DNA of 59,563 nucleotides from Rhizaria sp. SCN 62-66 (taxonomy: Eukaryota), in the NCBI GenBank assembly GCA_001724265.1, contig MEDY01000159.1:1-59563 (forward strand), in the 5' to 3' direction. Both the position numbers and the translations under genes were made by a program. Of the stretch, positions 196-50,116 are shown piece by piece (positions within the stretch are counted from its first letter, which is position 1; the number at the start of each line of letters is the position of its first letter). The notes under the pieces were generated by a model. It ran no database searches. It was not told the DNA's origin and saw only the letters and a program-made list of their open reading frames with translations.

Positions 196-1275
196 ATGGG
201 GTCGAAGCGTGCTGTGAGTGCACGCAATGAAATCTGGGTCAGTAGCATGACTAAAAAATTTACCCGCTTCCTCAAATTCACTGATGAGGAAATGCCCAAG
301 AGTCTGACCAAGAACGGCGAGACACCTGTGACTCTCGCCGCTGAAGAAGCCCGGGCGTGCCGGTGGCTGATGTCCCATTTCAGCCCTGACCTTAGCAGCG
401 AGATCACGAGGACTTTCGCTGCGGCCAATAAGACAACAACATCTAAAAAGTTTTCGACGAAGGAGGCCTGGATCTGCTACCACATCGTGTTCTAGACGCA
501 GTTTACCAAGGAAGTGTCGGAAGCGAATGAGAAACTTCTCAATTTCACCTCCAACGGCCTGAGAACCGTCGAGCAGCACTTCCGCGACTTCGAAGACCTG
601 GTCCAGATGGTCCAGATTACCAACCCGGCCACACTGAACAAAATGTATCTTGACTCGCTTCCCGACGACATCGCAGTCACCCTCCCGCTCTACATTTCGT
701 CCCTTCTTGATGTGGTCGTCGCGCCCGATCACGCGACGGTCAACGGCCACAACAGCACGATCAACCGCAGCAGTGTCACTGTTCCTTTTCCGCCAGCGAA
801 CACCGCTGTCTCCGGCACCAGCGCTCCGCAAGATACTCCAGCTTCTTCTAAGTCCTCCTCGTCTTCTTCTTCTCGCTCTTCCTCCTCTGTTTCCAGCTCA
901 TCTATTTCTTCTTCGTGTGATGCCGACTCAGTCGACACCGACTGGGAGTCGTTCCCGATGTGCCCTTACCGCCGCCACAAGCATGTCACCGCCGCGCTTG
1001 AGCAGTCTGACATCTTCAAGATGAACCGCTTCATCAAGGTATTGCTGGCCGCTTCGAAGCAGATCTACCTTCCGGCTAAGAAGCAGGTGAATCAGGCCTT
1101 CTACACGGCTTCGCCAAGCAACTCTGACGAGAACGCCAACCAGCAGCGCTCCAGTGCTCACACTGGCAATTCGTCCGGAGCGGTTATTGCTTTGTCTGCG
1201 GCAAGCGTGGTCATCGTGCCCCAGCCTGCCCAAACAAAGCCAAGCCCCAGAATGAGATGTATACGAAGGCCATAA
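196..1275 (+). CDS. Hypothetical protein (~359 aa) with one in-frame TAG at 493-495 read as sense
   Basis: Track ORFs 109..495 and 514..1275 share a frame and are separated only by TAG (TTC TAG ACG CAG TTT). First ATG at 196, ends TAA. Contains a Ser-rich tract; no family recognised. Confidence 0.6.
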
Positions 1276-1326
1276 TATGAAGCAGCCTCGCAACGCGATA
1301 GAACCGTCGTAAACTTAATCAGAGCT

Positions 1327-3765
1327 TTAATCGTGAGGCGCAAAACCTTGATATGAAGCCGTCACCTTCGCCGAGCAGTGCCCAACATGACACGACTAAG
1401 CCTTGCAGCGCGTCACAAAGCACTTGAGCAGAGCTGCATCAAACGGCTCCTCTCCCGCATCGTGATTTGCCGACGCTCTGTCAACGACCGACGACGTCAC
1501 GCGGCCGACGGGCACTGCGCCGCGCAGCAGGCTCGCACGGCACGGCTTGAAGACGATGAACCATGGCGTTGAGCATCGAACAGTTTTGGTCACTGTCCAG
1601 TCAGGAACAACGGTGTCGGGGTACATCAGCACCGTTCCTACAGGGTGCACTGCAGTTTCATCGATAGCGGCGGCAGTGTACTCGCCGTAAAGGAGGTCGC
1701 AGTCTGGCAGCGCCAGAGGCGCAGTGGCGCACGAGAGATTAAAGCTCTTCGATTTGATATGAAAGAACGTGACAAACGACAGCGGTGCGTCTGAATCCTG
1801 TTCCGGGGGCAGGAAACACGTGTGAAGCTGCATACCAAGCTCTAACCTCGCCGAAGCGCGAAAGTGTGCAGCGTTGCAGGGAAACTTATCATCGTTAAGA
1901 CGAATTTTCATGGTATACTCAGCTTGCAGCGCCGGGCCATTGTATACACGCAGCCCAATTAGAGCGTCTGACTTCGTGTGCGCACCCGCCAGTTTCTCTG
2001 GAGCGCAGATCAGGATGCGTTCGCGTGCCCTAGCCTGCAATAGAGCCACAGTGGCAGGCGAAGGCGCATCGTAAGACTGCGGAGAACCAGCATTTCGCAT
2101 CCCCACACGATTGAGTGCAAGTCGCGTCGCGTAGCAGCTGTGTTCTAAACTCTTTTCCAGATGAACATTCAATGCAGTCTGCCAGTCTTTGTGCGCCTGT
2201 AGAAACGCACGTGAGTCTGCGATCGTCAATTGAAGCAACTCTTCGGTTGGAGCCGAGCCAGACCTCATGACGCCCATGTTTTCAAGCAATTGATACAGCT
2301 GTGTAAGTTCAAACATTGATGATTCCTTGTCATTCTTCTGCATGCAGTCATCGTACCAGAGCAGCTCGAGTGCTTGCGGCCCGCGACAAGCAACAAACTC
2401 GGTCGCGAATTGGCCCGGTGGCGCTGCGTTAATGCCTCCAACTGCAGCGTCTGCTGAGCTGTTGCTGGCTAGCGCGCGGAACACACGTAACAGACGCGCC
2501 GTGTGGTATGGGATTATCGCCTTGCCACTTGAATAAGCAGTCAGGAAGAACCGCAAGAATGTACAACAAGTCCTGACCGCGCCACTCAAGAGCATATGTT
2601 GCGCAGCGCGTGTCACGTCAGAGGCTGTGCATAACACTTTTTCAAGTAGAATTACTGTGTTGAAGATCAAGTTGTGAGCGGTCATCAGGACACGCTCGAT
2701 GAAGTGATCCTTGATGTACCTTATAATACGCGCAAATGCACCGATGAGTAAGTCATGTTGGACAAGTCCGGGCATATTTTTAGTGAACGCAACAAAAAGA
2801 GACAAATAATTGCCCAGTTTTCCCATGTTATACGCTTCATCAGCCTGAATATCAGCGAGAATGCGCTCAACACGAGGGGTTGTGATCGCACCGGACGATG
2901 CTGCATCGTCGAGTATCAACAGAAACTAATACAACTGCATGATGCCGGAGGCACCCTGAATATCAAACAAGATATCAAAATCAGAACTTGAAGCAAACTC
3001 AGCAAGATCACTCTTGCGCCGGGCCTTATCCGCGTTCTGTGCATCAGCGGCGTCGCTGTCACTCCGAGAATTGCAAAACATGGTTAGTAAACGAGCATAG
3101 ACCGCCGTTCGAATAGTTTGGGCGTCACGACTGAGTCCCGGGAAGCGCCGGAGGACGCTGCGCAGCAACGGCACAGCGGCGGCCATGGTCGAGTACGGTA
3201 ACATGGGCTTCGTGTCGTCGCCCGCGCACAGTGCATCCACAGCCTGGATAAGAACGTTGTAGTAATGAAAGCCATCGCCGGTTGCCAATGGCGGTACTGG
3301 CTCCTGCTGATCCTGTTCTGCCTCATGCTAACGCATATGCGACAGCAGGAGCGCAAAGGCAGTACGCCTATCGTGCTCTGATGGAAGCGACGAGTTGCGA
3401 GAAACGGTCGTCACGAGCTCGAGAGCAGCTGTAGTCAACATGAGCGGTAAGGAAGGAAGTAACAACAGACTGACCAGCTTGTTAACTGCGCCGTATGTAG
3501 CAAGCAAATTGCTGCCCCCAGTATAGGTGGCAATCTGCCTGAAGATTGAGACAATGAGCCTGAGCTCGGTTGCATCAACACCGGCGAATGTAGGTCGCAC
3601 AAGCAATTGCATAAGCAATTCTACAACCCCACTGTCATTGAGCAAGTCAATCCTTGGTTGAAAGACAAAGTTGTCGTTTAGTTCGACCAAGGCGGAATGA
3701 TTAGGCGACAGGTCTTTGATGGAACTCAACACTGCGTGCAGGTCTGCGATCGTGCGGATCGGCAT
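1327..3765 (-). CDS. Hypothetical armadillo/HEAT-like helical protein (~812 aa) with a C-terminal Cys/His cluster and three in-frame TAGs
   Basis: Track ORFs 3328..3777, 2926..3288 and 1396..2919 are all one frame, each ending in TAG (3330-3328, 2928-2926, 1398-1396). Reading through gives ATG 3765 to TAA 1329-1327. ARM-like segments: GVVELLMQLLV, GAVNKLVSLLL, GAVRTCCTFL. Confidence 0.65.
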
Positions 3766-4513
3766 TGCGTCTAGCAAGACACAACAAAGGTCAAAGCAAG
3801 AACGGATAACACAAGCGCAACTCTTGTTCTTACATGTGGGGGGCGTAACTTCGCTTCCACAAACTCTTTGCGAGCTGATATTCAGAAAATCATTGACGAA
3901 AGGTAAAGGAGGGGTGAGCGACGTAGTCCCTTCTTTTCAAATAGATATATGAGGCATCTAGGAATATACATCTGAAATACGATACTCTTTGTTCTGTCAT
4001 GTGAACAGAATATTCATGGCAAAAACAACGGAGCCCGAATATCCTTCATTTCGAAGTTCGAAGGAGAGTCAAGAGCGCTTCGACCACAAAAACTTTTCGC
4101 GCACCATGGTTACAGTTATTCATCATCAAGTACAGCATGTGACACACAAACCTTCTTCAAAACACTGCACATGCTGTCTGCAAATGCATGTTTATGGTAT
4201 ACATGTAGGGTTCTCATCGAAACCGCGTTATCCCTTGTTGATCTTTAAGTTGTAACTCTACAGTAAGACGCTCAACCAACAAGTCCGCAGCTTTGACAAC
4301 GTCAATTACCAATTATAGGCATCAATCCACGAACAAAACTATGTATGTACTTGTTATTATATATACTAGATACACCAGCTATATATTAGATTTGAAAATG
4401 GATGTTGTCAAACGACTCTGTAAGCTCAAATAAACGCACTTCCAATTGATACGAGCTGGACCTGCGTGGTATGCACTTAATCGCAGTGTGTTGACGACTT
4501 TTTCCATGTTTTG

Positions 4514-7500
4514 TCACTGCAGCAGCGCGGCGTATGCGTCCGCCGCAGCGCGGCACGTCTCAATCGCCTCGACGATGTCGCCTTGTTCGCAGCCGTAGCG
4601 CTGGTACCAGTGCATGTAGGCGCCGCGCTGCAGCATCGCCTCAGCCTTGTGCGCCGAGTGCAGCAGCGCCAGCGCCGCGCGCCCGCGGTTGATGCCCACG
4701 GTGACCGAGCGGCCGATGTCCGGCGCCACGGCCGCAGATATCACACCCGCCTCGCCACCGCCGCCGCCGCCGCCGCCGCCGCTACTACTGATGCTGACTG
4801 CGCCGCCGCGCCTGCCCTTGACGCCGCCGCTGCTATTGAGCGACACGGCGGGCCCGCGCATCAACCGGCTGCCCGTAACGCCGCTGCCGCCATACCCTAG
4901 CCCCGCGCCCGCGCCCGCGCCTGCGCCCGAGCCGGAGCTCGAGCTGGAGGGGTTCGGGGTGGGGTCCACCCGGAGCCGGTAAGCGCTGAGCGAAGGGCCC
5001 GGCGCGCCCAGCAGCAGCAGCGGCGCCGGGTGCCAGCCGGGCAGCAGCCCCCCAGCCGCGCCGCCCGCGCCCACGCTCGCATTCGCAGCAGCAGCAACGG
5101 CGCCGGCGCCGGCGCCAGCGGCAGCGGCGGAGGGTGCGTAGCCGCAGAAGCGCGAGAGGGCGGCCTGCAGCGTGGCGGCGTCGGGCGGCGATAGGAACGC
5201 GTTGCGGCCTGACGCGAGCTGGCCGTAAGCAACGGAGAACCCGCGGGCCGCAGCGGAGTGACCGTGAACGGGGCGGCCGGGGGTGGGCTGGAGCTGCGGC
5301 AGCGGCCAGTGCGCGGGCAGAGGGACGGGGATAGGCGCGCCAGGGTCGGACGGGTGCCAACGCATCGCGAACGCCAGCCCAGCCGCCGCCGCAGCAGCAG
5401 CATGCACGCTCGCACTTGCACTGCTGGTGCGGCCCCTGCCTGTGCTCACGCTTGCGTTCACGTCGGGCATAGAGAGGCCGTGGCAGATGGCGGCGACGGC
5501 GAGCGTTTTGGCGTAGATGTTCCCCGCGTCGGGGTTGACCGCGCTGCCGGCGCCCACGCTCACCCACGACGACCCGCTGAGGACCCCCTTAGAGACTTGC
5601 GGCGTGGAGCCTGTGTTGTAGTACGGGGTGATGGATGCGAGGCCGTCGTCGGCATACCCGTAGTTGCTGTAGTAACGCCCCCGGTTCCGGCCGCCTCCCA
5701 TCCCAACAGCAACGCCGCGACTGAAACCGCTGCCGGCGCCCGTGTTTGCGCCCGTATTGGTGAGACGAGAAGGGGCAGCGAACGCGGAGCTCCCGTAAGC
5801 GTCGCGCAACCGCCAAGGATCCCCCGCCTCGTCCATAGTAGCGCTCGCGGGGTGCGCCGTCATGGCGTTGTAGCTGTCGAGGGCAGAGTTCCACAGGCCT
5901 CCCGCCCCCGAGGCGCGCGCGACAGCCTGCGCCGCCAGCAACGACGTCTTCTGCTCTTGCTGCTGCTGCTGCTGCTGCTGTTGATGGTCTTGGGACGAGC
6001 CGAGGCGGGCTAAGTTGTACACAGAAGGAGCAGACGTGACGAGGTCGCCGCGGCGCGTCATGAATAGCCCTTTACCCACCTGCTTGAGCCCCTTAGACGA
6101 CGACGACGACGACGAAGAGGAGAAGGAAGACAGCGACGCGGAGTCGCCGGACAGGGGTGGCATGTCAGCGCTCACGGCCGTGTAGGCGGGCAGCGTCCGG
6201 GGCAGCAGGCGTGACATTGCGTCACAGTGGCCGCTCCACTCGCCGTTAAGCACGCGGCCTAGCGTGCCGCTCACACCGCCCTGCTGCGATGTAAGGGCCT
6301 GCGACGTAAGGGCCGCGAGCCCGGCCGTGGACCAGATCTCGAACAACGGCGCGGCCGGGCTGGGGATCAAGTGGCTCAGCATGGCGTCTAAGTGGGACTT
6401 GAACGAGGTACTTACATGCCCCGCGGCCGACACGATGCCCGCCAGCGCCGCGCTGTTGTTGTTCTGCACGTTGAAGACCGAGGACCAGTGGTCGAGCTGC
6501 GCGTTCGGCGTCACGACCGGCGACCGCGACGCGAGTTGGGCTGCGAGCGACTGCAGCGACGCAACCGCCACGGAGCCGCCACCACCAGTGTTGCTAGCAA
6601 AGTTGCTGTAGGCTGCAGACGACGTAGTGGTTGCAGGTAAGATGAAATCGATGAACGATGTCGCAAAGTAGCGGTTCACAGCCCCCCACGCACCCAAACT
6701 ACTGTGACTGTTCGTACTCATGCTCGCAGCGTTCGCAGCCGAGACGTTAGCGTTGGCGTTGTTGCTATTGTTCGCGGAGAGCGCGAGCGTCATGGCGTCG
6801 TGGTTCGAGCACTGCCACACCGCGTCAGAGCTGCCCAGCACGGCCTGCATGCTTAGCACTGTGTTGTAGTACTGCAGAATGACCTCCCCGCCGAGCCCGA
6901 AGCCCAGCCCCGTGTTGCCGGCCTCGCCGCCCTCGCCGGCGCCGGTGCCCATGATCGGCGTCACTGCGCCGGTCACAATGCGCAGCTTCGAGCCGAAGTG
7001 GTCGCGGCACGCCTCGTGCAGGCGCGAGCCGAGTCCGGACCCCGTGCCGCCACCGGTCGAGTGCAGCAGCAGCAGCGAGCTCACGCGCGCGTCCCCCGCC
7101 GCGTCACTATACGGGGACGCCGGGTCTGCGCGCTCGAGCTGCAGCCGGATCGCGTTGAGCGCGCGGCGCGACAGGGGCCCGGAGTCAGAGTCTGGACCGT
7201 CGCCAGCGTTGTTGCTGTTAAACACGGAGCCGGTGGCGCGGCTGCGAGTCCGCGTCCGCGCGACCCGCGGGTTCCCGCCGCCGTAACTGTTGCGGGGGCG
7301 CGCATTCAGCGCTGCGTGCACAATGTCATCTCCCCACAACGCCGCGCCGTCGCCGCTCACCAGCGCGGCCGCTGCGGCCGCGGTCGCCGCAGCCGCGCCG
7401 CTGCCCTCAGCGGTCACGGCCGCTGTGGCGGCGGCAGAGGCCGCGAGTGCGAGCGCAACGAAGTCAGCGTCGGGGTTGATCGGGTCCACAGCGTCGCTGT

Positions 7501-9658
7501 ACAGCGAGTCCAGGGATGTTTCGGTGGGCAGCGAGTAGCTTCCGAACCGGGGCTGCGCAGCGACAGGTGCATTATGAAACGCAGCCGGAGCGGCGACGTA
7601 CGCACTGGAACGCTTAGCCTGGTCTTTGCGGGCAGCTCGCGTCGCCCGATACCGGTCGTAGCTGCTGCGGCCATGGCTGTCATAGCTCGCACTCGCGCCT
7701 GTATTCGAGCTGGGGCCGAAGACGGCAGAGGTCGCGCCAGCAGCGGCTGCGGCGACGAGGCTCGCACTACGCACGGGCGCTCCGCGCTCTCCGCCGCCGC
7801 GCTTGCCGGGGTGTTGCTGCAGCAGCTCGTCACCACAGTTACTGTCGCCGCCGTCGCCGTCGCCGCCGTCCTCGCGGAGGCCGCCGACCGCGCCGCGGCC
7901 CGTGGGCCCCGTCTCAGTCGAGAACGCCTCCGTGTGGGCGACGGCGGCGCTGCCATCACCGGCGCCGGCCTGGTGACCGTGGGCAGCGGCCGAGGGGCGG
8001 GGCAGCGCGCGGCCGCGGGACGTCGCGGGGTAGTACACGTTGAGGTACTGCTCGTTGGGCTGCGGCGTGTGGCCGCGCACGCCATATCGATGACCGGCTA
8101 AGGGGGCGCCTGGACCGCCGCAGGTGCATTTGGCCGGCCCATCTTTGCCTGGTCTCGCGTTGGGCTGATTCGTGTTGGTTGCAATGAGTTGCTGCTGCAG
8201 AAGACGGTTTTCACCGCGCTTCGCCGTCCCAACCCTCTTGATGCCACCGGAGCTCACCGCGGCTATCGCGTCCGCGTCACCAGCGGAGCGAGCACACTCG
8301 GGATTCTCGTCGTTGGCTTCGCTGGCAAGCATGCTGCGGAACGCGCTGTGGTCGTGAGCAGCCGCAGGGGCGGCCTGGTTTGCCGTGCGACTGAGACCGT
8401 GGTCGTGGCTGTGGCTGTAACCTTGACGCGCACCCGCAGTTGCAGGGGAGGCGGCAGCAGCTGCGGCTGCAGCCAATGCAGCCGTTGTCGCTGAATCTGG
8501 CAGCAAATACAAAGGCTCGCCTCGGGAGTTCAGCACAACAGAGCCAGACACAATGGGCCTGGCGGTGATTGCCCCGCGCGCGAACTTTGCGTTGACACTG
8601 TAAAACGGGTCATCATCGACGGCTGCAGCAGTCGTGTTGTTCGAAACAGCGACCGCAAGCGCAGTGACGAAGCTGGCGGGGGCAAGCACGGGCGGCTCCA
8701 AGTCTAAACAGTAGCCAACAGTCGCGTTCGCAGGAGAGATGCCGTTACCCTTGCTTTTTTTAAGCTTGTCTGCAGTCACGGTTGTGTCGTAGGTGATGAG
8801 AGAAGTTTGCGACGCCAATGGGCACCCATTCCTATGCTGTACTTGCTCCCCTTGCCCGTCCAGATCTAAGCGTGAAGCCGGTCGATCAGAGTCCCCCGCG
8901 TTCTTGTTTATGTTTGTGTTGCTCCTGCTGCCGCCGCCTTGGTTGCGCAACCGCGCGGCGCCGCCGTAGTACCCCATGGCCCAGTTGTTGCCGCGCCCGC
9001 ACTGCTCAAACACCACGTTCGCGAACGGGCTCCTGCTGTGGCCCATCGCGCTCGCGCTCGCGCTCTTACCGAGCCCGCCGATACCCGCGCCGCTGCCGCC
9101 GCTGCCGCCGCCGAAGCCGTACGTGTCGGCCGGCATCAGCAGGTGGCCACCGGGCTTGTAGAGGATAGTGTAGGCGGCAGCAGCGGCAGCAGCAGCAGCA
9201 GCAGCAGGGGGGTTGTTGCTAAGACTGCTATTCGCACCAGATTTACTGCTGCTTGCGGTGTTGTCGCCGTCGCCGTGCTCGCGGTTGCCGTCATGGTCGT
9301 ACTCTGAGTTGGCATCGCCCGCAGCGCCCCCGCGGCCGGCGGTGCCCGGACGCTGCGGGCGGACGAAGCCCCGCTCCGGGCCGGGTCGCGGGCGCGAGCG
9401 GAGCACGGCGGGGCGCGCGAACCGGCCGAACGTGGCCGCGACGGCCGCCACAACCTTGGGCTCGCTGTCCACAACAACCACGCGCGCGGTGCCGTCGTCG
9501 TTGAAGAAGGCGTCGCGCGCGGCGGCCCAGTGGGCCACGCTGGAGAATGCTGGCCGTAGCGCGGGCGGCAGCAGCGACGGGTCGGAGAGGGAGAGCAGCT
9601 GCGTCCAGAGCTCGAGGCCCAGCTGGTTGCCGCACTGGCCAATCTGGACAGTAATCAT
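4514..9658 (-). CDS. Zeta(eta)-tubulin (delta/zeta group), 1714 aa with very large low-complexity insertions
   Basis: Tubulin motifs in order: MITVQIGQCGNQLG, VVDSEPKVV, GRGNNWAMGY, HSTGGGTGSGLGS, EVILQYYNTVL, AYMHWYQRYGCE. DSEPK, GRGNNW and HWY fit zeta better than delta (DMEPK, GSGNNW, HQY) as I recall the families. Single open frame ending TGA. Confidence 0.8.
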   Translation of the reverse strand: MITVQIGQCGNQLGLELWTQLLSLSDPSLLPPALRPAFSSVAHWAAARDAFFNDDGTARVVVVDSEPKVVAAVAATFGRFARPAVLRSRPRPGPERGFVRPQRPGTAGRGGAAGDANSEYDHDGNREHGDGDNTASSSKSGANSSLSNNPPAAAAAAAAAAAYTILYKPGGHLLMPADTYGFGGGSGGSGAGIGGLGKSASASAMGHSRSPFANVVFEQCGRGNNWAMGYYGGAARLRNQGGGSRSNTNINKNAGDSDRPASRLDLDGQGEQVQHRNGCPLASQTSLITYDTTVTADKLKKSKGNGISPANATVGYCLDLEPPVLAPASFVTALAVAVSNNTTAAAVDDDPFYSVNAKFARGAITARPIVSGSVVLNSRGEPLYLLPDSATTAALAAAAAAAASPATAGARQGYSHSHDHGLSRTANQAAPAAAHDHSAFRSMLASEANDENPECARSAGDADAIAAVSSGGIKRVGTAKRGENRLLQQQLIATNTNQPNARPGKDGPAKCTCGGPGAPLAGHRYGVRGHTPQPNEQYLNVYYPATSRGRALPRPSAAAHGHQAGAGDGSAAVAHTEAFSTETGPTGRGAVGGLREDGGDGDGGDSNCGDELLQQHPGKRGGGERGAPVRSASLVAAAAAGATSAVFGPSSNTGASASYDSHGRSSYDRYRATRAARKDQAKRSSAYVAAPAAFHNAPVAAQPRFGSYSLPTETSLDSLYSDAVDPINPDADFVALALAASAAATAAVTAEGSGAAAATAAAAAALVSGDGAALWGDDIVHAALNARPRNSYGGGNPRVARTRTRSRATGSVFNSNNAGDGPDSDSGPLSRRALNAIRLQLERADPASPYSDAAGDARVSSLLLLHSTGGGTGSGLGSRLHEACRDHFGSKLRIVTGAVTPIMGTGAGEGGEAGNTGLGFGLGGEVILQYYNTVLSMQAVLGSSDAVWQCSNHDAMTLALSANNSNNANANVSAANAASMSTNSHSSLGAWGAVNRYFATSFIDFILPATTTSSAAYSNFASNTGGGGSVAVASLQSLAAQLASRSPVVTPNAQLDHWSSVFNVQNNNSAALAGIVSAAGHVSTSFKSHLDAMLSHLIPSPAAPLFEIWSTAGLAALTSQALTSQQGGVSGTLGRVLNGEWSGHCDAMSRLLPRTLPAYTAVSADMPPLSGDSASLSSFSSSSSSSSSKGLKQVGKGLFMTRRGDLVTSAPSVYNLARLGSSQDHQQQQQQQQQEQKTSLLAAQAVARASGAGGLWNSALDSYNAMTAHPASATMDEAGDPWRLRDAYGSSAFAAPSRLTNTGANTGAGSGFSRGVAVGMGGGRNRGRYYSNYGYADDGLASITPYYNTGSTPQVSKGVLSGSSWVSVGAGSAVNPDAGNIYAKTLAVAAICHGLSMPDVNASVSTGRGRTSSASASVHAAAAAAAGLAFAMRWHPSDPGAPIPVPLPAHWPLPQLQPTPGRPVHGHSAAARGFSVAYGQLASGRNAFLSPPDAATLQAALSRFCGYAPSAAAAGAGAGAVAAAANASVGAGGAAGGLLPGWHPAPLLLLGAPGPSLSAYRLRVDPTPNPSSSSSGSGAGAGAGAGLGYGGSGVTGSRLMRGPAVSLNSSGGVKGRRGGAVSISSSGGGGGGGGGEAGVISAAVAPDIGRSVTVGINRGRAALALLHSAHKAEAMLQRGAYMHWYQRYGCEQGDIVEAIETCRAAADAYAALLQ

Positions 9659-10223
9659 GGGCCCGGGCGGCGCTGCGGAGACCGGTGCGGAGCGTCCCTG
9701 GGGACCAGGATGCTGGCTTGGCGAAAGGAGAGGAGCGAAGTTAAGAAGAGCTGTGGGGAAGGAGTGGAGACAGACGTGAGGATATGAACAGGTTTCGAGT
9801 TAAGGTTGCAAATTTCCAAATAGTGATCAATGCACGCAATACACCATACCTCGGATCCAACATTGATAATCCAGCTGACGGATGTCTGAAAGTGTGGTGT
9901 ATCATGTTCGAATGTCGTTAAAGCACCGACTGTGGGGCACCACCAGCCGCAGGCCATCTGGTCCGACAAGTTGGTCTCACAAAACACAAAACAGGGGCAC
10001 ACACGAACGTCAAATTCAATTTCTATAGCGCATCCTGGACTGAAGATGGAGTTTGCAGTGTTATATTTTAACAGCACTTTGAAAAACTACTATATTCAAG
10101 CTCATATTCTCACTGATTCATCTCACCCCTTTCGCGCAGCCCCACAGCCCTCTAGCTCTCTCCCCAAGCACTCCACCGAGTCAGCATCTAAGTTTCTCAG
10201 CCACTCTCTTTATCCGCGCGCCA

Positions 10224-30702: not shown

Positions 30703-30740
<38 letters not shown>

Positions 30741-33918: not shown

Positions 33919-34092
33919 ATGCGTTCAAGCAAGAACAACAAATCTCAAGCAAGCTCGAGCAAGCAGCAGGCCTCTGACTCCGTTGCGAGTTGCAACGCAG
34001 CGGCTGTCGTTGTCCCCGGCGGCTGTATCCCTGCGTCCCACTCGGAGCCCGAGCAGGAAGCACAACAAGAGCAGCACGCAGAGCTACCCGCA

Positions 34093-34125
<33 letters not shown>

Positions 34126-36825: not shown

Positions 36826-37419
36826 GAGGCGGATTTGCGCTAAGCGGTTCGCGTTTATTATGATGTTTTAATGCAGATCTAGCCTGAGCAATGGCCACAA
36901 CAAGATGTATACATAGCGTTTAACTACTTTGTGGCAATGATCGGTGATATAGTTGATAATAGCAGTGTTGTAATGTGTATTTGTTTTCTCTTTTGCAGTG
37001 TCGTATTGCGTTTTAGTGAGTGTGTGCGTTATCATATGGCTTCTTGCTCATAGCAGAGAGCTCTTGTGCGATAACAAAGACAAGATATATAAAACTCCGA
37101 GAACAGGAATACGTGACAAGAAGAGCCAGTAGTTTACAACATGAATATTCTATTTGTTGTTTGAGAGACTGTTTTACTTACTGACAAAAGCTAGATTTTG
37201 TTGCTGTTGTTGTTGTTTTGTTCGTATTATTATGTAAAAAAGAAAAGAATGTGAAGGTTCTTTTGTTTAAATATTCGAAGAAATACCGGCCCTCTAAACC
37301 CGACACAGATACACATCGTAACGTTTTACTATTATGAAGCTTGTTGTTAGTCATAGTGTGTCTGCCAAAGGTCGAGAGCGAAGCACTACTTACACGGTTG
37401 AATAATGTAAGAGGGGTAC

Positions 37420-38877: not shown

Positions 38878-38910
<33 letters not shown>

Positions 38911-39675
38911 CTCGGTGACCTTGCGCGAGAGGTAGTCCTCGGCGGTGGACTTCATCTTCATCAGAACGAAAGCGCCGACCTGCGAGGGGGAGTACTTCTT
39001 GCCGTGCGCCTCGACCCAGGCGTCGCCGTTGCCCGCGGCAACGATCTTGTAGGGGGAGGTCTTGATGTCCTTCTGGGTCGCGGGGTCGTCGTAGCGGCGG
39101 CCGATGAGGCGCTTGACGGCAAAGAAGGTGCCGGCAGGGTTCTGGACGGCCTGGCGACGCGCGGGGGCGCCGACGAGCATCTCGCCGGACTCGGTGAAAG
39201 CCACGGTCGAAGGGGTCGTGCGGGCACCCTCGGAGTTCTCGATGATGCGGTAGTTCTTGCCTTCCATGATGGCGACGCACGAGTTGGTGGTGCCGAGGTC
39301 GACGCCGATGATGTCGCCCTGCGAGGGCGCGGTGACGGAAGAGGCGCGGAGGGGGATCGACACCGCAGCCTGCGAAAACAAAACAAATCATCAAACAACG
39401 AAAAGAAGAAGAAAGAGAATGGTCGAAGAAGGTGAGATTATATGTTCGGATGATATAATGGAGCTGATGATAGAGAGCAATTGAGGCGAGAATGTGCGAG
39501 TCTTGGACTCCGCACCTGGAGAGGGGCAGGGCCGGCGCAATGCACAAATTTGGAGACGCAAATGCGCAGCATAAGGCGTGATACATAGATAGGGATGGAG
39601 ATCTAGAAGTGGGGAAAGACATACCTTAAGGCCGGGCGCAACCTTCGTGGCCTTGGAAGCGAAACGAGAGAGCAT
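37420..39675 (-). CDS. HSPA9: Mitochondrial Hsp70 (DnaK-type, SSC1/mortalin ortholog); 2 exons, ~666 aa
   Basis: Exons 39675-39625 and 39369-37420. Basic, acid-free presequence [25 protein letters not shown]. Motifs [78 protein letters not shown]. No EEVD or KDEL terminus. Stop TAA. Confidence 0.96.
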
Positions 39676-40669: not shown

Positions 40670-43571
40670 ATGAGCAACCTCAACAACAGTCACAGCTCGC
40701 ATCAGCAGCAGCAGCAGCAACGCCAGCATGTCCACCGACACAGCGTCAGCAGCGGCAGCGGCGGTGGCGGCGGCCTGCCCCCGCAGCCGCTGTCACCGAC
40801 CAGCTCCGACTCCGGCGACGGCGACGGCGACAGCGATGACTGCGGCACCTTCACTCCCCTGCCGCTGCCGCTGCTGCTGGCCACCTCCCCTATCGCCGGC
40901 AACAGCGCGGGCCACGACCTCGCCAGCGGTGGCAGTGGCTTCAAGGGCGCTACTGGTGGCGCCGCGGCGGGTAGGGGCGCCGGCGGTGTCAGTACCTCGG
41001 GTGTAAGTACCTCAGGTCTCAGCACACGCTTGCACTACACTTCGTCGCCCTTAGCACTGCCGCTGCCGCTGCCGCTGCCTTCACACGGTCACTCTGCTGC
41101 CCACGGCCACGGCCTCGGCCACAGTGGCAGCAGCCACACGAACAGCACGGGCGACAGCAATGCGCCGCCAGGGTACTTACACGCGGGGTACTTACATCGG
41201 GCCGCAGCCTCGCCAGCAGGTTCAGCGATCTCAGTCACGTCGTCCTCATCGTTCCACTCTGCAATTGGTCCCAGTCCCGCACTCCACGCAACGCCGGTCG
41301 ACATCGCCGCTAGCACCAGCAGCAGTAGCAGCAGCTCCGCAGCAGCAGCAGCAGTGGCGGCGGCGGCGGCGGCAGCGGCAGTCAGTGGGTCATCGTCGCA
41401 TTTGCACTCTTATCTGTACACGAAGCCTCAGCAGCCGACCCACTTCGGGCCTGGCTTCAGCCCCCATCTGACTCCGGCGCTGGCCCCGCTGCACTCAGTG
41501 GCGCCCCTCAGCCTCAGTCTCGGGCAAGCTCAGTCGCACTCCCAGCCGCATATCCGCACGCACTCGCCTCTCATGCATGCCTCGCAGTCCCAGTCCCTGT
41601 TGCAGTCCCAGCCGCAGCTGCAATCGCATTCATTGTCGTCGCACGCACAGAGTATCCACGGCGCCATCACAGTCAATAGCCCGAGTCCGAGCTCCCTTGG
41701 CCACACTGGCACTTCAGGCACCGCGTTGTTCAACCGGTTTGGCCCCATCAGCAACACGAGCAACCCGAACAAGACGGTTGTATCGTGTTCTAGCCTGTTC
41801 AGCAACAATAACAATAACAATAACAATAACAACAACAACAGTGCTAATGCGAGTAGTGACATGTGTGTGCCGCTGCCGCTGCCGCAGTCGCTGTTGACTG
41901 AGCAGGAGTCGCACAACACCAATAGCAGCCAGAACAACACGGCCGCGGCGACGACAATGGTGAGCGCCGCCCACAGCGCGCAAAGCGTCGTGATGAGTGT
42001 CAACAATACGCAGAATATCAACCTCGGTGCTGGTGGTGGTGGAACGGCATTCACGAGGACGCACACTCCTGAGTCAAGTGTTACCGGTGCACACGACCCG
42101 GACGATCGCAATAACAACAACAATAACACTATCAACAACATGACTGCAAATAATGACGCGAATCATGCCGACGTGAACACAGGTGACACGGCTGCTGCTG
42201 CTGCTGCTGCGGCTAATACTGCTGCTGCTGCTGGGGTAACACGTGGCAATGCGAGCGGCCTTGCTCCCGGCTATCTAAGTACCCGCAGCGCGTCATCGGT
42301 GAATCTAAGTGGCCATGCCAGTACCCAGGCCGCTTTGTCAGTCCCGTGGCGGACCCGCGAGCCTCTCCACCTGCCCTCCGCCTTTTCACTCAACAGCAAC
42401 GTCCACAGCAACTTCACCTTGAACAGCAAAACAAACGCGCTTCTGTCGCCTGCCGGCGTCGGCGTCGGCTTGGCGGCTGCGACCAAGGCCACTGCCCCTG
42501 GTGTTGCTCTGAACAGCAGCAATAGTAACCTGCGCACGCACAGCTTGTCCCGCGCGAGCACGACCGGGTTCGCCGCTGCCCATTCGCTGGAGAGAGTCAA
42601 GCCGGGCCACAGCCTCTCTGCCACCAGCGCCGCGGCCGGTGCGAATGCTCTTGCGAGTGCTTCTCACGGCCACGGCCACGCCCCGAGCCATAGCAACAGC
42701 AGCAACAACCTCGCCGGCATCCTGAGCGCCGACGGTCTCGGCGGGCTCGCGGCCGGCACGCCCCCCGGCCCTAGCCCCAGCCCGAGTCCCCTGTCGCCGG
42801 TGTCGGAGCCCCAAACGCAGTCAGACGCGCTGTCCGTATCGCGCTCGCAGCTGCAGAGCTCGCCGCAGAAACAGCACCTGCAGCTGACTCAGCAGCAGCT
42901 TCAGCAGTCGCCGTCGAGGGGCAGCCTGAGCCACGGGCACAACGGCAATCTGATCGACAGTTTGAGTGGCGTCACGCTGCCGCTGCTGCTGCGGCCCTCC
43001 TCGGTCGCGAGCAGCACCACCAGCGCAAGCACCAACGTGACCAGCGCCAACGCAAACGCACACGTGAATGCGAACATGTGCAATAGCGCTGCGACGAATG
43101 CGGCGGCGACTGCTCCGAACACTGGGAACGTGTTGATGGTGGAGTCTGCTTTAGTCTCCACGGTGAACCCGGCGCTTTCCAGTCTAAGTACCTTCGGAAC
43201 GCGCGCCCGCTCACAGTCACTGAGCAGCGGCAGTGCGTATGTAAGTACCCCAGTCGGCCTCGTCCCCTTACCTTCGCCTTTTTCCGTACCACCGACCTCT
43301 CAGGGGCACTTACCCCCCGTGAGGCCCTTACATGGTCTAAGTATCACGAGCAGCCATGCGTTGAGTTCACAGTCCTTCAACCACGAACAACAACAGCAGC
43401 AGCGGCAACAACAGCAGGAGCAAGAGCAGCTCGATGGCGAGCAGCAGCAACAGCTGCAGTCGCTGACAGTATCGCAGTCAGTACCGCATTCACAGTCGAT
43501 GGTGCAGTCGTTTGTGTTGCCCGCACCGACGTTCACGCAATCGCACAGCAACACCACGAACAACAGCAGCC

Positions 43572-43602
<31 letters not shown>

Positions 43603-44680
43603 TACCCACGCTGACAACGACAACGACAATGCTAATGACGCCAACAAGCTCTTGTCTGACTCGCAATCCCAGTCACAGTTTGCGCAGGTACAGGTACGGC
43701 CACGGTTGACGCCGACGACAGTGGAAGACGTCGTGTACAGCATGGGCATCGCCGACTCCGCCGCCGCCGCGGTGGCCGACTATAAGGCGATGGCCGGGGG
43801 GTACTTAGTCGGTGACAGCGCTCTCTTCGCCCCTTACATCGACGTCGAGGGCCCTTACACCACAGGCCATCAACAAGGCGGTAGTTTGCTCATGGATAAG
43901 AATAGGAAAACACAGCTCTATTTCTACGACCCGACTCTGAAGACGGCTCACGCAAACTCTAGGAGTGTCACGACGACGAATGCCGACTCGAAGCCTGACT
44001 CTGACCTTAAGTCGGAGGCAGAGAGTGACACAGAGTCCGACACAACGGCCGCGGTCAGCAGCACCGACAACGACACCGGCGATGACATTCACGGCCATGT
44101 GTGCTTGTGCGAGAACGACACCGGCGTCGACGACGACGTCGTCCTCGTCCTCGCCCGACTCGCAGCCGCCGCGGGGCTCCTCACCCTCACCGCGTCCAAG
44201 CAGGCGCCCGGGCCGTCGCAGGCGTCTAAGGGGGTACTTACCAGATTTGCGACGGCGCGCGACGTGCTGGCGCTGGTGCGCGGCATCATGTGCGGCGATT
44301 GCGAGCAGTTCGGCGCCCTCATCCTGGACCACTGCAGCGGCGGAGCGGGCGCGCCGCCAGTGCTGCTGCTGGACGAGCGGGTGACTGTGATCGCGCAGAG
44401 CGGCACCAACGCGGACAACGGCAACGGCGACGGCGACGGAGATAGTAACAGCAATGATGTGAACGACAACGCTGATGCTGCTGGCTCCGACAAAGTCCGT
44501 GTTCAATCGGATATTAGCCGTGGTGATCGAATTAACGATGCCCACGTGGGCACAGCGCCTCATACGGACCACTCAAGTGGCGACGGCGACAACGACGGCG
44601 AGACTGATACGGTCCCCATCCTCGTCGCTGGCCCCACTGCAAAACCCACGGTGACTGCTGCTGCTAGCTATAACAACAGC

Positions 44681-44717
<37 letters not shown>

Positions 44718-47700
44718 GAAACACGATTGCGGCTAGCAATCTTAGCTCGAGTTCAAGCTCGAGCAGCAGCAGCAGCGCTTTAGGACTCAGCCTCAGCCTC
44801 AGCATCGACACTGAAGCAGACAACCCGCCTAGCAGCAACAGCAACAACAACACCACGAACAGAGCCAATGCCAACCCCAGCGCCACTGCCAACCCGCATG
44901 CAACTGCTCCTGCGAACGCGAGTGCAAGTGCAACCTCCAGCGCAAACGGCGGTAGCGGTGGCTTCAACAGCGGCGCATACCTGATCCTGTCCCCGACTGC
45001 GGTCACTGCGGCCACCGCTGGCACCTCGTTTAGCTTCGGCGTATCCCCAGTCTCCGCTTCGGTCCCCGCGTCCGCGCCCGTCCCCGCGAAGTTGTCCTCC
45101 ACTGGCGCCGCCGGGTCTGGCTGCAACAGCCCCAGTAGCAACGCCAGTGCGAATGCTAGTGTTGGCGCAAACTCTCGCACCAAATCGAATGCGAGCGTGA
45201 ATGTGAGGGGTTTCTCTACGTTTGCTACTGCGGGCCCGCCTGGCTCTGCCGGCGCCGGGGGCAGTCTAAGTACCCCGGGACAGTTTGTAAGTACCCCCGC
45301 GCCGTATCTAAGTGGGCACAGTGGGTTTCTCTCCCCGGTCGCAATTGCGGCTGCCGCCGCCGTCAACAACAGTAATGCCGCCAACTCCAGCGCGGGCAGT
45401 GGCTGCAGCGGTCTGAGCAACAGCAATGTACCGAGCGCGGCGCTCTGCAGCAGCAACATGTCCCTCAGCCGCACCGCGACAGCCGCGAGCCTGTTCGCAT
45501 CGCTCGTCGCCGCAGGCACCAACATCGCCAACACGCAGTCAGCCACGGGCGTCACGGCAGCCGCTGCTGCCGCTGCTGCCGCCGCCGCGAACGCGAGCGC
45601 GAGCGCCAACGGCGGCGTCATCGATGGCGTGAGCGCGACTGGCTTCGGCCCCGGCTTTGCGCCCACTAGCAGCGCGAGCGCCAGTGCCAGCGCCAGCGCC
45701 AGTGCGCTGTACAGCTCCAGTCCGATGTCCAATGCCAGCAGCGTTCACAACGCCAACGCTCCTGTCAACTCGAGTGCAAATGCGAGCGCGAGTGGCAATA
45801 CTCTGAATGCGCTTGTGAGTACGAGTGGCATGAGTCTGAGTGTAAGTGGTCCCGGGCTGAATCTAAGTACCCCCTGTCTAAGTACCCCGTCTCTAAGTAC
45901 CCCGGCCCTCGGTGGTCCTGCGCCGCCCGCGCGCGCTCGCGTGCAAGCCTCGCCGACAGCAAGCTCGCACAACAGCACCTTGAACAGCAGCGACGCCGCC
46001 AGAGCGAACACTGGCGCAAACGCGGCTGTACACGGCGACGGGGGTCGCGTTGCCAGTGGCAGTGACAACATCGGCGGTGTCCGCGCGAGCAGAAGCTCGA
46101 TTCAGTTGTCTGCTGTAAGCCCGCAAACAGTGACCACGTCATCGTTGGCTCAGTCGGGCGGTGGCAAAGCTAAGCCGAACTTACCCTGCCCCGCGCCGCT
46201 GCCTCCAAGTGCTAAGAGCAAGACTCCTGCCAGTGCCGCAACGACTACCACTGGCGCTTTCCCTGTCAGCCTCGATGCCCCTGCACCGATCGCGATTCCC
46301 GGGGCCTCGCTTAACGGCAACGGCAACGGCAACGACAGCAATGACAGCAACAGCAGCAACGATACTGTCAATGCGAATGCAATCGCGAATGTCAGTGTCA
46401 ACGACGACGACAACCGTCACACGGCAAGTATCGGCGATAGCAATACGAGCCATGACGCGGACACACTGTCTCCTCTCGGCGGCGGCCTAACTTCACCGCG
46501 CGGCTTAACTTCGCAGCCGCAGGACCTCACTTACCTCATCGCTCGCGCGATCGCAGCCATCCCCCCTATCAACCCCACCGTCAGCAACACCAACGCCACG
46601 AACGTGAACTGCGTTTCCAACGGCAATACCGCTTGCCTGAGTCCCCCCGCCTCCGCCGACGCCGACGCCACCGCCGCCCCCTCGGCCGTCAGTCTAAGTA
46701 CCCCCTTAGCGCACACGCCCTCGGTGCTGGACTGTCTGCTCTGCGGCGCGGCCGAGGCGCAGGGCGGGCGGCCGCAGCTTGAGGACGAGCACAGCGTGAT
46801 CCTGCCCTTCCGCTCGCTCACGCACCTGGTCTTCGCGCTGTCGCCCGCGGAGGCGCTCGGCCATGGGGGGCTGCTGCGCGGCGGGGTCGTGCCCAGCATG
46901 GAGCCGGAGACGTGGCTCATTACCAGCGGTCAAAGTAACAGCAATAGCAGTGCGTTTATGAGCGCAAACACCTTGTCTAGTAGCAACAACACAAGCGAAA
47001 CCAAGGAAACCGAGGGCAACGACGAGGATGCGGCTCAAAGCGCCGGCTCTGTGCTGGCGCAAGCAGCTCGCCACCTCAACCTCAACGACACTGAGGGCGA
47101 CGACACGCCCACTGCGACAACTATCACCACAGCATCATATGCGCCCACGATCGCTAGCCCTGGCAACGCTAGCCCTATCAACGCTAGCTCGAGCAACGCT
47201 AGCGCAACTCTCGTGTCGTCACCGCCAATTCCCCCTGTTGCGGCCTCGCCTGCTGCGGCCTTGCCTGTAGCGGCGAACGCCCTCGTGGCGGCTCTCGCCG
47301 ACCCCGCCTACGCGCTCGTGCTCGGCGCGTCCTCTCTGTTTGCCGTCTACGACGGCCACTGCGGTCGGTCCGCGGCCAGCTTCCTCAAGTCGCTGCTGCC
47401 GCTGCACATCGCGCTGCACCTGCGGCACGCGCCGCGCAACGTGCCCGCCGCGCTGCGCAGGGCCTTCCTGCAGGTTGACGCGCTCTGGCTGGCTGCGCAG
47501 ACGATGCTGGCCACGAAGCAGGAGCGCGACAGGCAAATCGAGCTTTTTTTGGAGCATGAGCAGCAGAAGCACGTTGCACGGACGCTCCTCCAAGAGGAGC
47601 AAGAGCGAAACCAGTCGAACTCTGTGAACGCGAAGACTCATGCCGCGGCGGCAGCGGGCTCACAGGCCAACATCGCGGCGCTGCGGCTGTCGCGCTCGCA

Positions 47701-49308
47701 TCCGAGCCAGTGGCTGCCGGCGCCCGCCCTCGCTATACTGGAGCAGCTGCAGCAGACGCCCGTGCGCTCCTTCGCGGGCGCCGTCGCCGTCGTCGTGCTG
47801 TGTCTGGGCGGCACGGCCTACGTCGCGCACGCCGGCGACGCGCGCGCCGTGCTGTCGCGCTCCGGCGCCGTGGTCGAGCTCACCCGGGACCACACCGCGC
47901 ACCGGGGCTCAGAGCGGCGCAGGCTCGCGCGCGCGGGCGTGGGCGTCGACCGCGAGGGCCGCGTTAACGGCGAGGTCGAGGTCTCGCGCTCGCTGGGCGA
48001 CCTGGACAGCGGCAGCCTGCGCAAGACGGCCGGGCTTGCCGCCGAGCCCGAAGTGCGAGTCGAGGCCATCACGGACCGCGACGAGTTCTTCATCCTGGCC
48101 TGCGACGGGCTCTGGGACGTGCTGCCGCCCGCGGTCGCCGTCGGCATCGCGCGCCGCGAGCTGCATCTGACCGGAAATCCGCAGAGCGCGGCGCGCGCGC
48201 TGGCCGCCACCGCGCTGGAGCTCGGCTCCAGCGACAACGTGACCGTCGTCGTCGTGGGCTTCGAGCGGTGGTGTCACCGCCACTGTCCGCCCGTGGTCAT
48301 GGCGCGCGACCAGTCTACATGCCAGGCGGCGACTGAGTCTGAGGAGGTACTTAGATTCGGCGAAGGGGAAGTGCGCAGTGGTGAATGCAGCGTTGGCCAA
48401 GTCAAGCGCGAGAAAGAATCCGCCCTCTCCAACTGCAATGCCAACGACGACTCCTTATGTCGTCGCCGCACAAGTGACTGTGAGCCCGCAAGTGACTGTG
48501 AGCGCGGGTGGGCAGCGTTCCAGCTCGTCCGCAGCGCCCGCGCCCGCGCTCGGGCCCTGGGCCTCAGCGAGCTCGAGTACGCTCTCGCGCATCCACACAC
48601 CAGCTCTCTCAGCCTCACCCACGGTTACACTGACGACCCCAGTGGCTCTATGAATGCGCGCAGCTGCACTGGGGGCGACGGCTCGCTGCAGCAGTGTCTC
48701 GGCGCGGGCGCGAGCGTTGTAGCCTCTCCCGTGACCCAGGAGGAGGTGTCGCACCTGCTCAGCGGCGGCGCGGCCACCGACGTCGCCACTTTGCGACAAC
48801 AACAACAACAACAGCAACAGCAACAGCTGTATCAGTCGAGCAACAGCAATGGCAACAGTAATCTCCATGGCGATTATGGCACCTGCGGTAGCTGCGACTG
48901 CAATTGCCACAGCAGTCGCCTCGCGAGTGACAGTGAGCCCCGCAGTCTAGGTGACCGTGAGCCCCGCCACAGTCTAAGTGACTGTGAGCACCATCACAGT
49001 CTAAGTGACTGCGGGCCGCCGCGCAAGGACAACGTGGACTGGGGCGCCGTGTGCTGCGCTGTGGGCCCCCGGATCGTGTGCGCGTGCGCCGGCGCCTACG
49101 CCAGCGCAAACAACAACAGCTCCAACACGAACGCGAATATGAATCCAAGCGATGGCAATGAAGCCTCCAAGAGCGACGCGAGTTTGAACGACCACGGCCA
49201 CGGCCACTACCACTGCTCGGCGTGCTTCTGCTTCCGCCAGCACAGCGGCTGCAGGTGGGTCCGGCAGCAACAACAACAAGGCTACTCCGACAGCAGCACC
49301 AGCAGCAC

Positions 49309-49345
<37 letters not shown>

Positions 49346-50116
49346 GCTGATGCTGATGCTGATGCTGAGGTGACCGTGAGCACCGTCGGCAACGTCGTCG
49401 TTCGCGGCGATATAGGCTTGTGGTGGAACCAGCAGAACCGCGTCGTGATCAATGTTAAGCCGCTTTCTAAGGACGACTTGCTCAACGCGACCGCGATCTC
49501 CACCGCGCAGCAGCGGCTGAGTCAGCAAACGCAGTAGTCTCCGGCGGCGGCCACCTACCCGCTCACGCCGACCAGCAACAGCAGCTACTTTGGTCACACC
49601 AGCAGCAGCACCAACAACACCCCGTTCGGCGACGGCGTGGCCACACCGGCCGCCTCTGCCGCGCCCGCTGTGACCGCCTCTGCGAACTCGACCGCCGCGA
49701 GCGCGCGCATGTCGCCCATCGTCAGCACGCCGACCGGCAGCAACAGCGTTGCGACTGTTGTTGCTTCGGAAGCGTCCGGTACTCCTGCTGCCACCGCTGG
49801 TGACAGCCGCGCAGGCGCGGGCACCCCCACGGCGACCGACGCAAGCCCCTCCTCGGCCGCCGCCGGACCGTGCCAAGGCTGTTCGCTCGAGCCCCACGCC
49901 GAGACCGGCCAGCTCTACTGCTCCGGCCGCTGCGCCGCGCCGCTCGTGGCCACCGCCAAGGCCTGGAAGCCGCCCTTCAAGCGGCTGCAGCAGAAGGCGG
50001 CGGCGGCAGCAGCGGTGGCGGCAGCGGCAGCATCGCCTGTGGCCGCAGAGACGGCGCCAGGAACTGCGGTTGCCGATACTGCCACGGTTGCTGCGACTGA
50101 AGATTTGAAGCTATGA
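40670..50116 (+). CDS. Giant PP2C/PPM-family protein phosphatase (~3148 aa) with one in-frame TAG at 49535-49537
   Basis: PPM motifs QGGRPQLEDEH, FAVYDGHCG, YVAHAGDARAVL, LTRDH, GRVNGEVEVSRSLGD, FFILACDGLWDV, GSSDNVTVVVV (~46750-48265). Track ORFs 40670..49537 and 49637..50116 are one frame joined by CAG TAG TCT. GC-rich coding composition ends at TGA 50114-50116. Confidence 0.85.
44681..44713 (+). repeat. (AAC)11 coding microsatellite (poly-Asn) in the PP2C gene
   Basis: Read directly. Similar AAC/AAT, CAG, GCG and GGC runs occur throughout the exons, e.g. 41804-41840 and 34098-34125. Confidence 0.9.
45863..45903 (+). repeat. Three copies of CTAAGTACCCC at 15-bp period
   Basis: Copies start at 45863, 45878 and 45893 and encode LSTPC-LSTPS-LSTPA. 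Part of a dispersed motif family described in the findings. Confidence 0.9.

Follow-up and report, generated by a model that had tools for sequence, protein, structure and literature searches.

The organism that left contig MEDY01000159.1 very probably reads the codon UAG as an amino acid and ends its proteins at UAA and UGA. The contig was analysed as a single stretch of 59.6 kb, called here the window, and the codon in question interrupts four of its long reading frames, which are referred to as genes A to D. An earlier note on this DNA had proposed that UAG is sense while UAA and UGA are stops, and the proposal has held up on four lines of evidence: the homologues of gene B continue across its TAGs, a TAG lies inside the ubiquitin domain of a related gene, in-frame TAG, TAA and TGA stand at 18:1:0 in paralogous loci, and TAG acts as terminator in no gene examined, TAA and TGA both being used. 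Translation would have to pass the TAGs for the conserved sequence downstream of them to be made. The use of UAG is sparing, at about 1-2 per 1000 codons in weakly biased genes and none in the strongly biased, conserved genes of the window.

The four genes and their in-frame TAGs are given below. Minus-strand TAGs are named by their first base as read on that strand (3330, 2928 and 1398, the codons occupying 3328-3330, 2926-2928 and 1396-1398), and the residues of gene B (203, 337, 847 and 849) are counted along its stop-to-stop frame from 3936 down to 1330. GC3 denotes the GC content of third codon positions.

196-1275, plus strand: gene A, for an orphan protein that includes a Ser-rich tract; TAA end; GC3 0.66
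493-495, plus strand: TAG of gene A, codon 100 from the ATG at 196
1327-3765, minus strand: gene B, with three in-frame TAGs and a TAA end; ARM-like helical solenoid and conserved C-terminal beta domain
3328-3330, minus strand: TAG at gene B residue 203, in a variable polar column; bridged by independent contigs with 0 differences
2926-2928, minus strand: TAG at gene B residue 337, in a gap-free alignment; bridged by independent contigs with 0 differences
1396-1398, minus strand: TAG at gene B residue 847, followed by 22 codons and then TAA; homologues run past it
20447-26128, plus strand: gene C, encoding a long protein of low complexity; three in-frame TAGs; TAA end; GC3 0.62
20795-20797, plus strand: TAG in the Gln-rich tract of gene C, with no AT-rich GT..AG intron around it; bridged by X3 record 8 with 0 differences
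20825-20827, plus strand: TAG in the same Gln-rich tract; bridged by X3 record 8 with 0 differences
21785-21787, plus strand: third TAG of gene C, position confirmed
40670-50116, plus strand: gene D, a very long PP2C phosphatase with its Pfam domain at residues 2405-2577; one TAG and a TGA end
49535-49537, plus strand: TAG of gene D, 193 codons upstream of its TGA

In-frame TAGs, gene ends and homologues in the window

All eight in-frame TAGs lie where the earlier note had placed them, in four frames that hold no internal TAA or TGA. Measured from stop to stop, the frames contain one TAG in 392 codons (A), three in 870 (B), three in 1928 (C) and one in 3202 (D), and the other five frames carry 30-45 stops across B and 33-89 across C. 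The four genes end in TAA, TAA, TAA and TGA, and the ten further ends of open reading frames (ORFs) comprise six TGA and four TAA, a tally that reproduces the previous one exactly; TAA and TGA thus close seven frames each, and TAG is found at 0 of 14 ends. Two of the ten further ends (30135 and 55476, both on the minus strand) might be exon ends rather than gene ends, and the terminators sampled, 14 in the window and those of the 30 loci described below, are few and include no conserved single-copy marker set.

Openness on both sides of a stop is no evidence by itself in such GC-rich DNA. Pairs of same-frame ORFs split by one stop, with at least 100 codons on each side, were counted in all six frames, and the dividing codon is TAA in 9, TAG in 11 and TGA in 19 of them. 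Because such openness is common here, the case is built on homology, codon usage and stop usage. An AT-rich flank (GC 0.33-0.43) follows 11 of the 12 real gene ends and none of the eight TAGs, after which GC stays at 0.45-0.70.

Coding-like composition had been said to resume after each TAG, and a codon-usage score upholds this for genes A and D and less firmly for gene C. In gene A the same frame scores best on both sides of TAG 493. The tail of gene D has a GC content of 71% and few stops in any of the six frames, so that openness alone would make a weak case; the score there is best in frame for about 140 codons past the TAG and drops after the TGA, and GC is 0.70 after the TAG as against 0.35 after the TGA, the only one of the two to be followed by an AT-rich flank. 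Support in gene C is weaker near 20795 and 20825, where the Gln-rich tract scores poorly. Ahead of its third TAG run 481 codons with no TAA or TGA, in a region where the other frames have 5-19.

Two further candidates concern introns. An intron at the TAGs of gene C was rejected, no AT-rich GT..AG stretch being found and the stretches of 68 and 74 nucleotides picked out by eye being out of frame; at the two TAGs of the Gln-rich tract this bears out the earlier statement that no AT-rich GT-AG intron surrounds them. A 36-nucleotide in-frame GT..TAG stretch does surround 21785 and is far shorter than the 177-nucleotide intron of the same contig. That intron itself holds a ninth in-frame TAG, absent from the earlier note, which was rejected as a sense codon since it sits in a real AT-rich GT..AG intron.

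12699-12875, plus strand: intron of the MYST acetyltransferase gene, 177 nucleotides, AT-rich and T-rich, GTACG...TACAG
12726-12728, plus strand: ninth in-frame TAG, inside this intron and not a sense codon

The homologues of gene B bear most directly on its three TAGs. An exhaustive profile-free search recovers 99 homologous clusters (82 at E<=1e-10), all of metagenome proteins; a search restricted to 8000 word-sharing candidates gave nothing at E<=1e-3. Full-length homologues of 700-880 amino acids align without gaps across residues 203, 337 and 847 and on to the C-terminus, and each TAG therefore corresponds to exactly one residue. The column at residue 337 has, in the 18 rows with a residue, K5, R4, Q2, S2 and one each of G, N, F, P and E. 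Opposite TAG 847 (row L001:785) stand E4, K1, R1, N1, A1, G1 and one gap, and two residues further on Cys849 is invariant in 10 of 10 rows, after which the tail aligns with the C-termini of the family. Since the last 22 codons still align with the family, the TAG in front of them is not the terminator. Calls of gene B in the protein database are broken exactly at these codons, P0134 covering residues 58-202, P0156 251-336 and P0125 371-846.

The lineage-specific family of gene B has no Pfam model and is large: it comprises 99 clusters, and a single metagenome contains 30 or more paralogues that are 30-55% identical. A predicted structure of one member, P0127 (predicted local distance difference test score, pLDDT, 81; predicted template modelling score, pTM, 0.82), consists of an ARM/importin-like solenoid followed by a beta-rich C-terminal domain, and a Foldseek search with this model against the PDB gave only ARM/importin-like solenoids, none at E<=1e-3. 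In the beta-rich domain the motif LRGAVPVGRV hardly varies, and several Cys residues are invariant.

Contigs from independent runs pass over four of the TAGs with 0 other letters, namely 2928 and 3330 (X4 record 9; X5 records 18 and 19) and 20795 and 20825 (X3 record 8), and no difference row of the compared runs coincides with any TAG, in a comparison that did not extend to 493, 1398 and 49535. Among the contig pieces listed from these runs, none bridges 21785. Run X5 is probably DNA rather than RNA.

Paralogous loci and the residue proposed for UAG

A pattern search of the metagenome collection with a 10-row alignment of the gene B family gave 30 loci (L001 to L030), all in one metagenome. 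One of them, L001, is 100% identical to the window and has the same TAG as 1398. Over the best high-scoring segment pairs of all loci (10,223 codons) the in-frame stops are 18 TAG, 1 TAA and 0 TGA; 17 of these TAGs, in the 29 loci other than L001, are new, and L001 repeats that of the window. In-frame TAA and TGA as frequent as TAG had been named beforehand as the sign of pseudogenes or errors, and these counts do not show it. Random nonsense mutation predicts a TAG share of 0.48-0.56, and at shares of 0.50-0.55 the probability of at least 18 TAGs among 19 stops is 4e-5 to 2e-4. In frame, TAG occurs 1.76 times per 1000 codons; off frame, the rates per 1000 are 6.1 for TAG, 7.75 for TAA and 19.1 for TGA.

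A single reading frame is kept in 27 of the 30 loci. Past the homologous part, a first TAA or TGA is reached in 29 (TGA 21, TAA 8; the remaining contig ends first), mostly near the expected C-end, and in five loci a TAG precedes it; as a terminator, TAG is required by none of the 30. One family gene of 845 codons (L006) contains four TAGs. Two loci at first appear to overrun the end of the family by a long way, and in both the overrun is an in-frame fused C-terminal ubiquitin domain.

L018, 2-958: family member with a fused ubiquitin domain
L030, 1-810: family member with a fused ubiquitin domain

In L018 a TAA stands directly after the C-terminus of ubiquitin. In L030 a TAG at residue 101 falls within a Pfam ubiquitin match that is complete (profile positions 1-72 of 72, residues 76-147, E=2e-26), and a protein of the database, P0141, ends exactly at this TAG. 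Beyond its ubiquitin domain, L030 encodes a Peptidase_S74 domain ("chaperone of endosialidase", E=9e-9) and a coiled coil, an odd combination. In the protein library, 21 of the 96 family proteins are at least 80% identical to the loci, most of them 99-100%, and several of these pieces begin or end at a TAG. A TAG that L012 and L022 seemed to have in common was set aside: it falls in the same column of the protein profile, but the DNA alignment places the two at different positions.

For the identity of the residue, a profile was built from the family proteins minus the 21 of 96 that are at least 80% identical to the loci, and log-odds were summed over those TAG sites, 23 in number, that have a match column. 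Lys comes first at 8.4, ahead of Glu at 7.6 and Gln at 4.0, and Leu is at -17.7. With control codons the same procedure returned the true residue in 235-300 of 300 resamples, most at 295 or more; true CTG/TTG sites gave Leu in 300 of 300, and true CAG sites never scored below 5.2 in 300 resamples, a minimum that the Gln score of 4.0 does not reach. Leaving out three doubtful copies gives K 7.2, Q 4.9 and E 4.7, and Leu scores -13.3 without the suspect copies. The ranking is driven by few sites: a column of the suspect copy L005 with E in 49 of 58 rows, one of L010 with 30 E and 18 D among 59 (Ala in its closest paralogues), one of L009 with Q in 20 of 59, and one of L027 with K in 55 of 75. 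A Leu column is found at one TAG site of the 23, in the suspect copy L027. Most of the TAGs lie at variable, polar positions.

Pairs of paralogues give a mixed picture. The ubiquitin-domain TAG of L030 is opposite a CAG in L018, and of the ten codons flanking it nine are identical and one is synonymous; by eye, the two paralogues are about 80% identical. Between L012 and L022, which are 71% identical, one TAG is opposite GAA and another opposite AAG. The earlier note had called the residue "probably Gln". A polar residue is consistent with the profile, and the CAG of L018 speaks for Gln; the Gln part of the claim is set back by the scores of K 8.4 and E 7.6 over Q 4.0 and by the GAA and AAG pairs. 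The Gln-rich contexts of genes C and D, which had been offered in its favour, are compatible with Gln and do not prove it. Overall, the residue looks polar, with Gln, Glu and Lys not separable on the present material. Glutamine would be the leading candidate, at rather less than an even chance, with glutamate a possible second and lysine a less likely third; leucine is very unlikely as the meaning of UAG.

Opposing evidence and other explanations

Several observations weigh against a sense meaning of UAG. The residues opposite TAG in close paralogues are S, R, L, Y, A, E and K, with no single one favoured. Past the TAG, the ubiquitin domains of L018 and L030 differ by 3.5 synonymous and 14.5 non-synonymous changes, which is no synonymous excess, though the counts are small. 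Some family copies carry other lesions, namely an in-frame TAA in L005 (L005:457) and frame changes in L020, L022 and L026, and in L027, on a contig of 44% GC, three TAGs occur within 120 codons (217-282), two of them at conserved columns (K in 55 of 75 rows, L in 66 of 77). Some of the counted TAGs may thus be genuine nonsense mutations in decaying copies. Moreover, the 30 loci share one metagenome and not necessarily one genome. A homologue search with gene A returned only its own downstream piece (P0230), and none of the eight window TAGs is inside a Pfam domain. A scan with ARAGORN of the window and the 30 loci, together about 157 kb, yielded no tRNA gene at all, and no eRF1 gene occurs in these sequences either. 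In the poly-A RNA run X6 none of the contigs listed spans a TAG and depth is zero in two bins over 2000-3327, which is evidence neither way. Two other searches were also negative, Pfam on seven other ORFs of the loci finding no TAG within a domain and Rfam giving no match in the window.

Among the other explanations, the one that survives best, itself rather improbable, is that UAG lacks both efficient termination and a dedicated tRNA. It would then be decoded slowly and ambiguously by near-cognate tRNAs (inserting, for example, Gln, Lys, Tyr or Glu), and this would be tolerated at unconstrained sites of weakly expressed genes. In yeast, Gln, Tyr and Lys are the residues that near-cognate tRNAs insert when UAG is read through. 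The rarity of TAG (1.76 per 1000 codons) and its confinement to genes of low GC3 agree with such leaky decoding, as do the mostly variable polar columns and the closeness of the K, E and Q scores, and no tRNA with anticodon CUA was seen, though only about 157 kb were searched. However, up to four TAGs in the 845-codon gene of L006 would compound the inefficiency, one TAG lies within the well-conserved ubiquitin domain, and the known UAG-only reassignments have dedicated CUA tRNAs, as far as the available part of PMC11687900 describes them.

Less probable again is the idea that the genes with TAGs are pseudogenes or recently inactivated copies, in which ordinary nonsense mutations have accumulated under the standard code. 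The TAA of L005 and the frame changes of L020, L022 and L026 fit it, and so do the residues opposite TAG, which are one codon step away (E, K, Q, S, L and Y), and the atypical codon usage of genes A and B. Decay of this kind does not explain the stop ratio of 18:1:0, with an expected TAG share of about 0.5 and P of about 1e-4, nor that all eight internal stops of the four window genes are TAG. The absence of frameshifts in 27 of 30 copies, the conservation past the TAGs (including the invariant Cys and a complete ubiquitin domain), and the lack of TAG at any of the 14 window ends or as a needed terminator at any locus also stand against it, and four inactivated genes would be required among the roughly 15 window ORFs and genes examined.

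Slightly lower still comes the idea that the TAGs are missing from the mature mRNA, either spliced out with tiny in-frame introns or edited from U to C, which would leave a standard message. The 36-nucleotide in-frame GT..TAG stretch around 21785 could be pointed to, and among the RNA contigs listed none lies over a TAG to speak against it. Against this, each TAG occupies exactly one family column with conserved residues on both sides, so that nothing is left to splice, and the sole verified intron, 177 nucleotides long, AT-rich and T-rich, is unlike the surroundings of the TAGs; as to editing, we know of no precedent in nuclear genes for one specific to a class of codons. Sequencing or assembly errors can practically be dismissed, given that contigs of three other studies (X3, X4 and X5) match 2928, 3330, 20795 and 20825 with 0 differences, that the L001 contig has the same TAG as 1398, and that no supporting point was found.

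With UAG taken as a sense codon, it would be read by a tRNA with anticodon CUA, or by efficient near-cognate decoding, and eRF1 would no longer recognise it. Standard gene callers cut genes at TAG, and the resulting fragments are already present in the public protein library; without re-annotation, eukaryotic bins from this lineage will therefore seem fragmented and full of pseudogenes.

Host organism, gene content and known variant codes

The window, with GC of 51-71%, consists of long genes rich in low complexity and of AT-rich intergenic stretches, and its DNA is also present in bioreactor, wastewater and activated-sludge metagenome runs of several studies. It is nuclear DNA of an uncultured, GC-rich, intron-bearing eukaryote from wastewater and bioreactor metagenomes; the description "GC-rich, intron-bearing" had been given before and is confirmed by this base composition and by the classical intron at 12699-12875. 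The recognisable genes encode a mitochondrial-type Hsp70 (mtHsp70), the MYST acetyltransferase, the PP2C phosphatase of gene D (about 3150 residues) and an FtsX/MacB-like permease, and a tubulin-like gene was identified by eye.

4514-9799, minus strand: tubulin-like gene of about 1700 codons (by-eye identification)
37420-39387, minus strand: main exon of the mitochondrial-type Hsp70, with no TAG; TAA end; GC3 0.93; used for placement
50644-54343, plus strand: eukaryotic FtsX/MacB-like permease; a further exon lies upstream, and an AT-rich intron near 51250-51400

The tubulin-like gene has a tubulin-like start, again by eye, and then very long low-complexity inserts. The permease ends in a TAA just past its FtsX domain (profile end at residue 984 of 993), and its nearest clusters in the protein atlas are from Euglenozoa, Tubulinea and bacteria, which is of no help for placement. 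The Hsp70 ORF has no Met ahead of the conserved start motif, and its start codon and any presequence must sit in an upstream exon; of the "presequence-bearing mtHsp70" noted earlier, the mtHsp70 identity is sound and the presequence is not borne out by this ORF. Codon bias is strongly uneven, with GC3 of 0.79-0.93 in the Hsp70, FtsX, MYST, tubulin-like and other genes and of 0.56-0.66 in genes A, B and C, and the window TAGs are almost confined to the weakly biased genes. Genes from 1327 to 9799 are on the minus strand and those from 10083 onward mostly on the plus strand, the interval 9800-10083 resembling a divergent promoter region, and genes A and B lie tail to tail with 51 nucleotides between their ends.

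The closest relatives of the mtHsp70 are metagenome proteins at 92%, 83% and 76% identity. Its best named match is Guttulinopsis vulgaris at 74%, red algae and plants reaching at most 72%, and in a quick IQ-TREE analysis it falls in a 13-row clade (Shimodaira-Hasegawa-like approximate likelihood ratio test, SH-aLRT, 100) of which G. vulgaris is the sole named member. This placement is that of one gene in a quick tree with thin taxon sampling and no other rhizarians among the rows. G. vulgaris is a sainouroid rhizarian, and the organism is probably a rhizarian related to the Sainouroidea and to dung-dwelling amoebae; this is to be taken as a lead. The habitat fits, since wastewater plants harbour active sainouroids, Rosculus among them (PMC8827150, in part). 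The same group, according to the available part of PMC5304391, holds exLh, a rhizarian close to G. vulgaris in which UAG is Leu, while for G. vulgaris itself the standard code is probable, and UAG terminates a gene of Rosculus. The "independent origin" suggested in the earlier note is questionable in this light, since the nearest named mtHsp70 relative belongs to the group of exLh (PMC5304391, in part).

The event would be either related to the UAG reassignment of exLh or a second one beside it. A second reassignment within or next to the Sainouroidea, giving a polar residue here and Leu in exLh, is an unlikely but not negligible prospect. Were it true, UAG might have been freed from termination in a common ancestor by a change in eRF1 and then captured by different tRNAs in its descendants, or near-cognate tRNAs might still decode it ambiguously in the lineage of the window; either way, a eukaryote outside the ciliates would offer a living intermediate stage of codon capture. 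Sparing use of UAG might be expected early in codon capture. Codes that give UAG and UAA different meanings are rare, the usual coupling of the two codons being broken in them (available part of PMC11687900), and a further non-ciliate case beside Iotanema and exLh would provide a data point on stop-codon capture, in an abundant uncultured wastewater protist. In the literature searched, no such code is described for any wastewater eukaryote or for a rhizarian other than exLh.

Among the variant codes in which both UAA and UAG are Gln, as in Amoeboaphelidium protococcarum, many ciliates and some green algae (PMC5304391, in part), the likeness to the present case is that a stop has been made sense, possibly as Gln. 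In contrast to those codes, TAA works here as a terminator, after the FtsX domain, after the ubiquitin of L018 and at the C-terminus of gene B, and the in-frame count is 1 TAA to 18 TAG. The window contig, with about 60% GC and a long T-rich intron, seems unlike ciliate macronuclear DNA.

UAG alone has been reassigned in Iotanema (to Gln), in exLh (to Leu) and in phyllopharyngean ciliates (to Leu and Gln) (PMC5304391 and PMC11687900, each in part). The ciliates resemble the present case in keeping UAA as a stop, in having been found through metagenome or reassembled data, and in that related lineages give UAG different meanings; they differ in that suppressor tRNA(CUA) genes were found in them, whereas none was found in the roughly 157 kb here, and in that they use UAG widely, while it is rare in the organism of the window (PMC11687900, in part). 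Iotanema spirale (Fornicata), also a non-ciliate protist, reads UAG as Gln and stops at UAA and UGA, which would be the same pattern if the residue here is Gln (PMC5304391, in part), but it belongs to an unrelated supergroup, the Metamonada.

In exLh, too, UAG alone is reassigned, all in-frame stops are UAG (384 in 71 genes), true ends are "exclusively represented" by codons other than UAG, and UAG is scarce in highly expressed genes (PMC5304391, in part); judging from the mtHsp70 grouping with G. vulgaris, the two organisms are probably of the same broad lineage. They differ in the residue, Leu being strongly disfavoured at the TAGs studied here (-17.7, against +4 to +8 for Q, E and K), and in frequency, since exLh has about five UAG per conserved gene whereas the codon is much rarer here and absent from the Hsp70, the FtsX permease and the P-type ATPase of L021 (PMC5304391, in part). 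Overall, the code is of a known kind, UAG-only reassignment, of which this is a further case, and its added value is that it is probably near exLh and yet non-Leu, with UAG still rare and limited to weakly biased genes.

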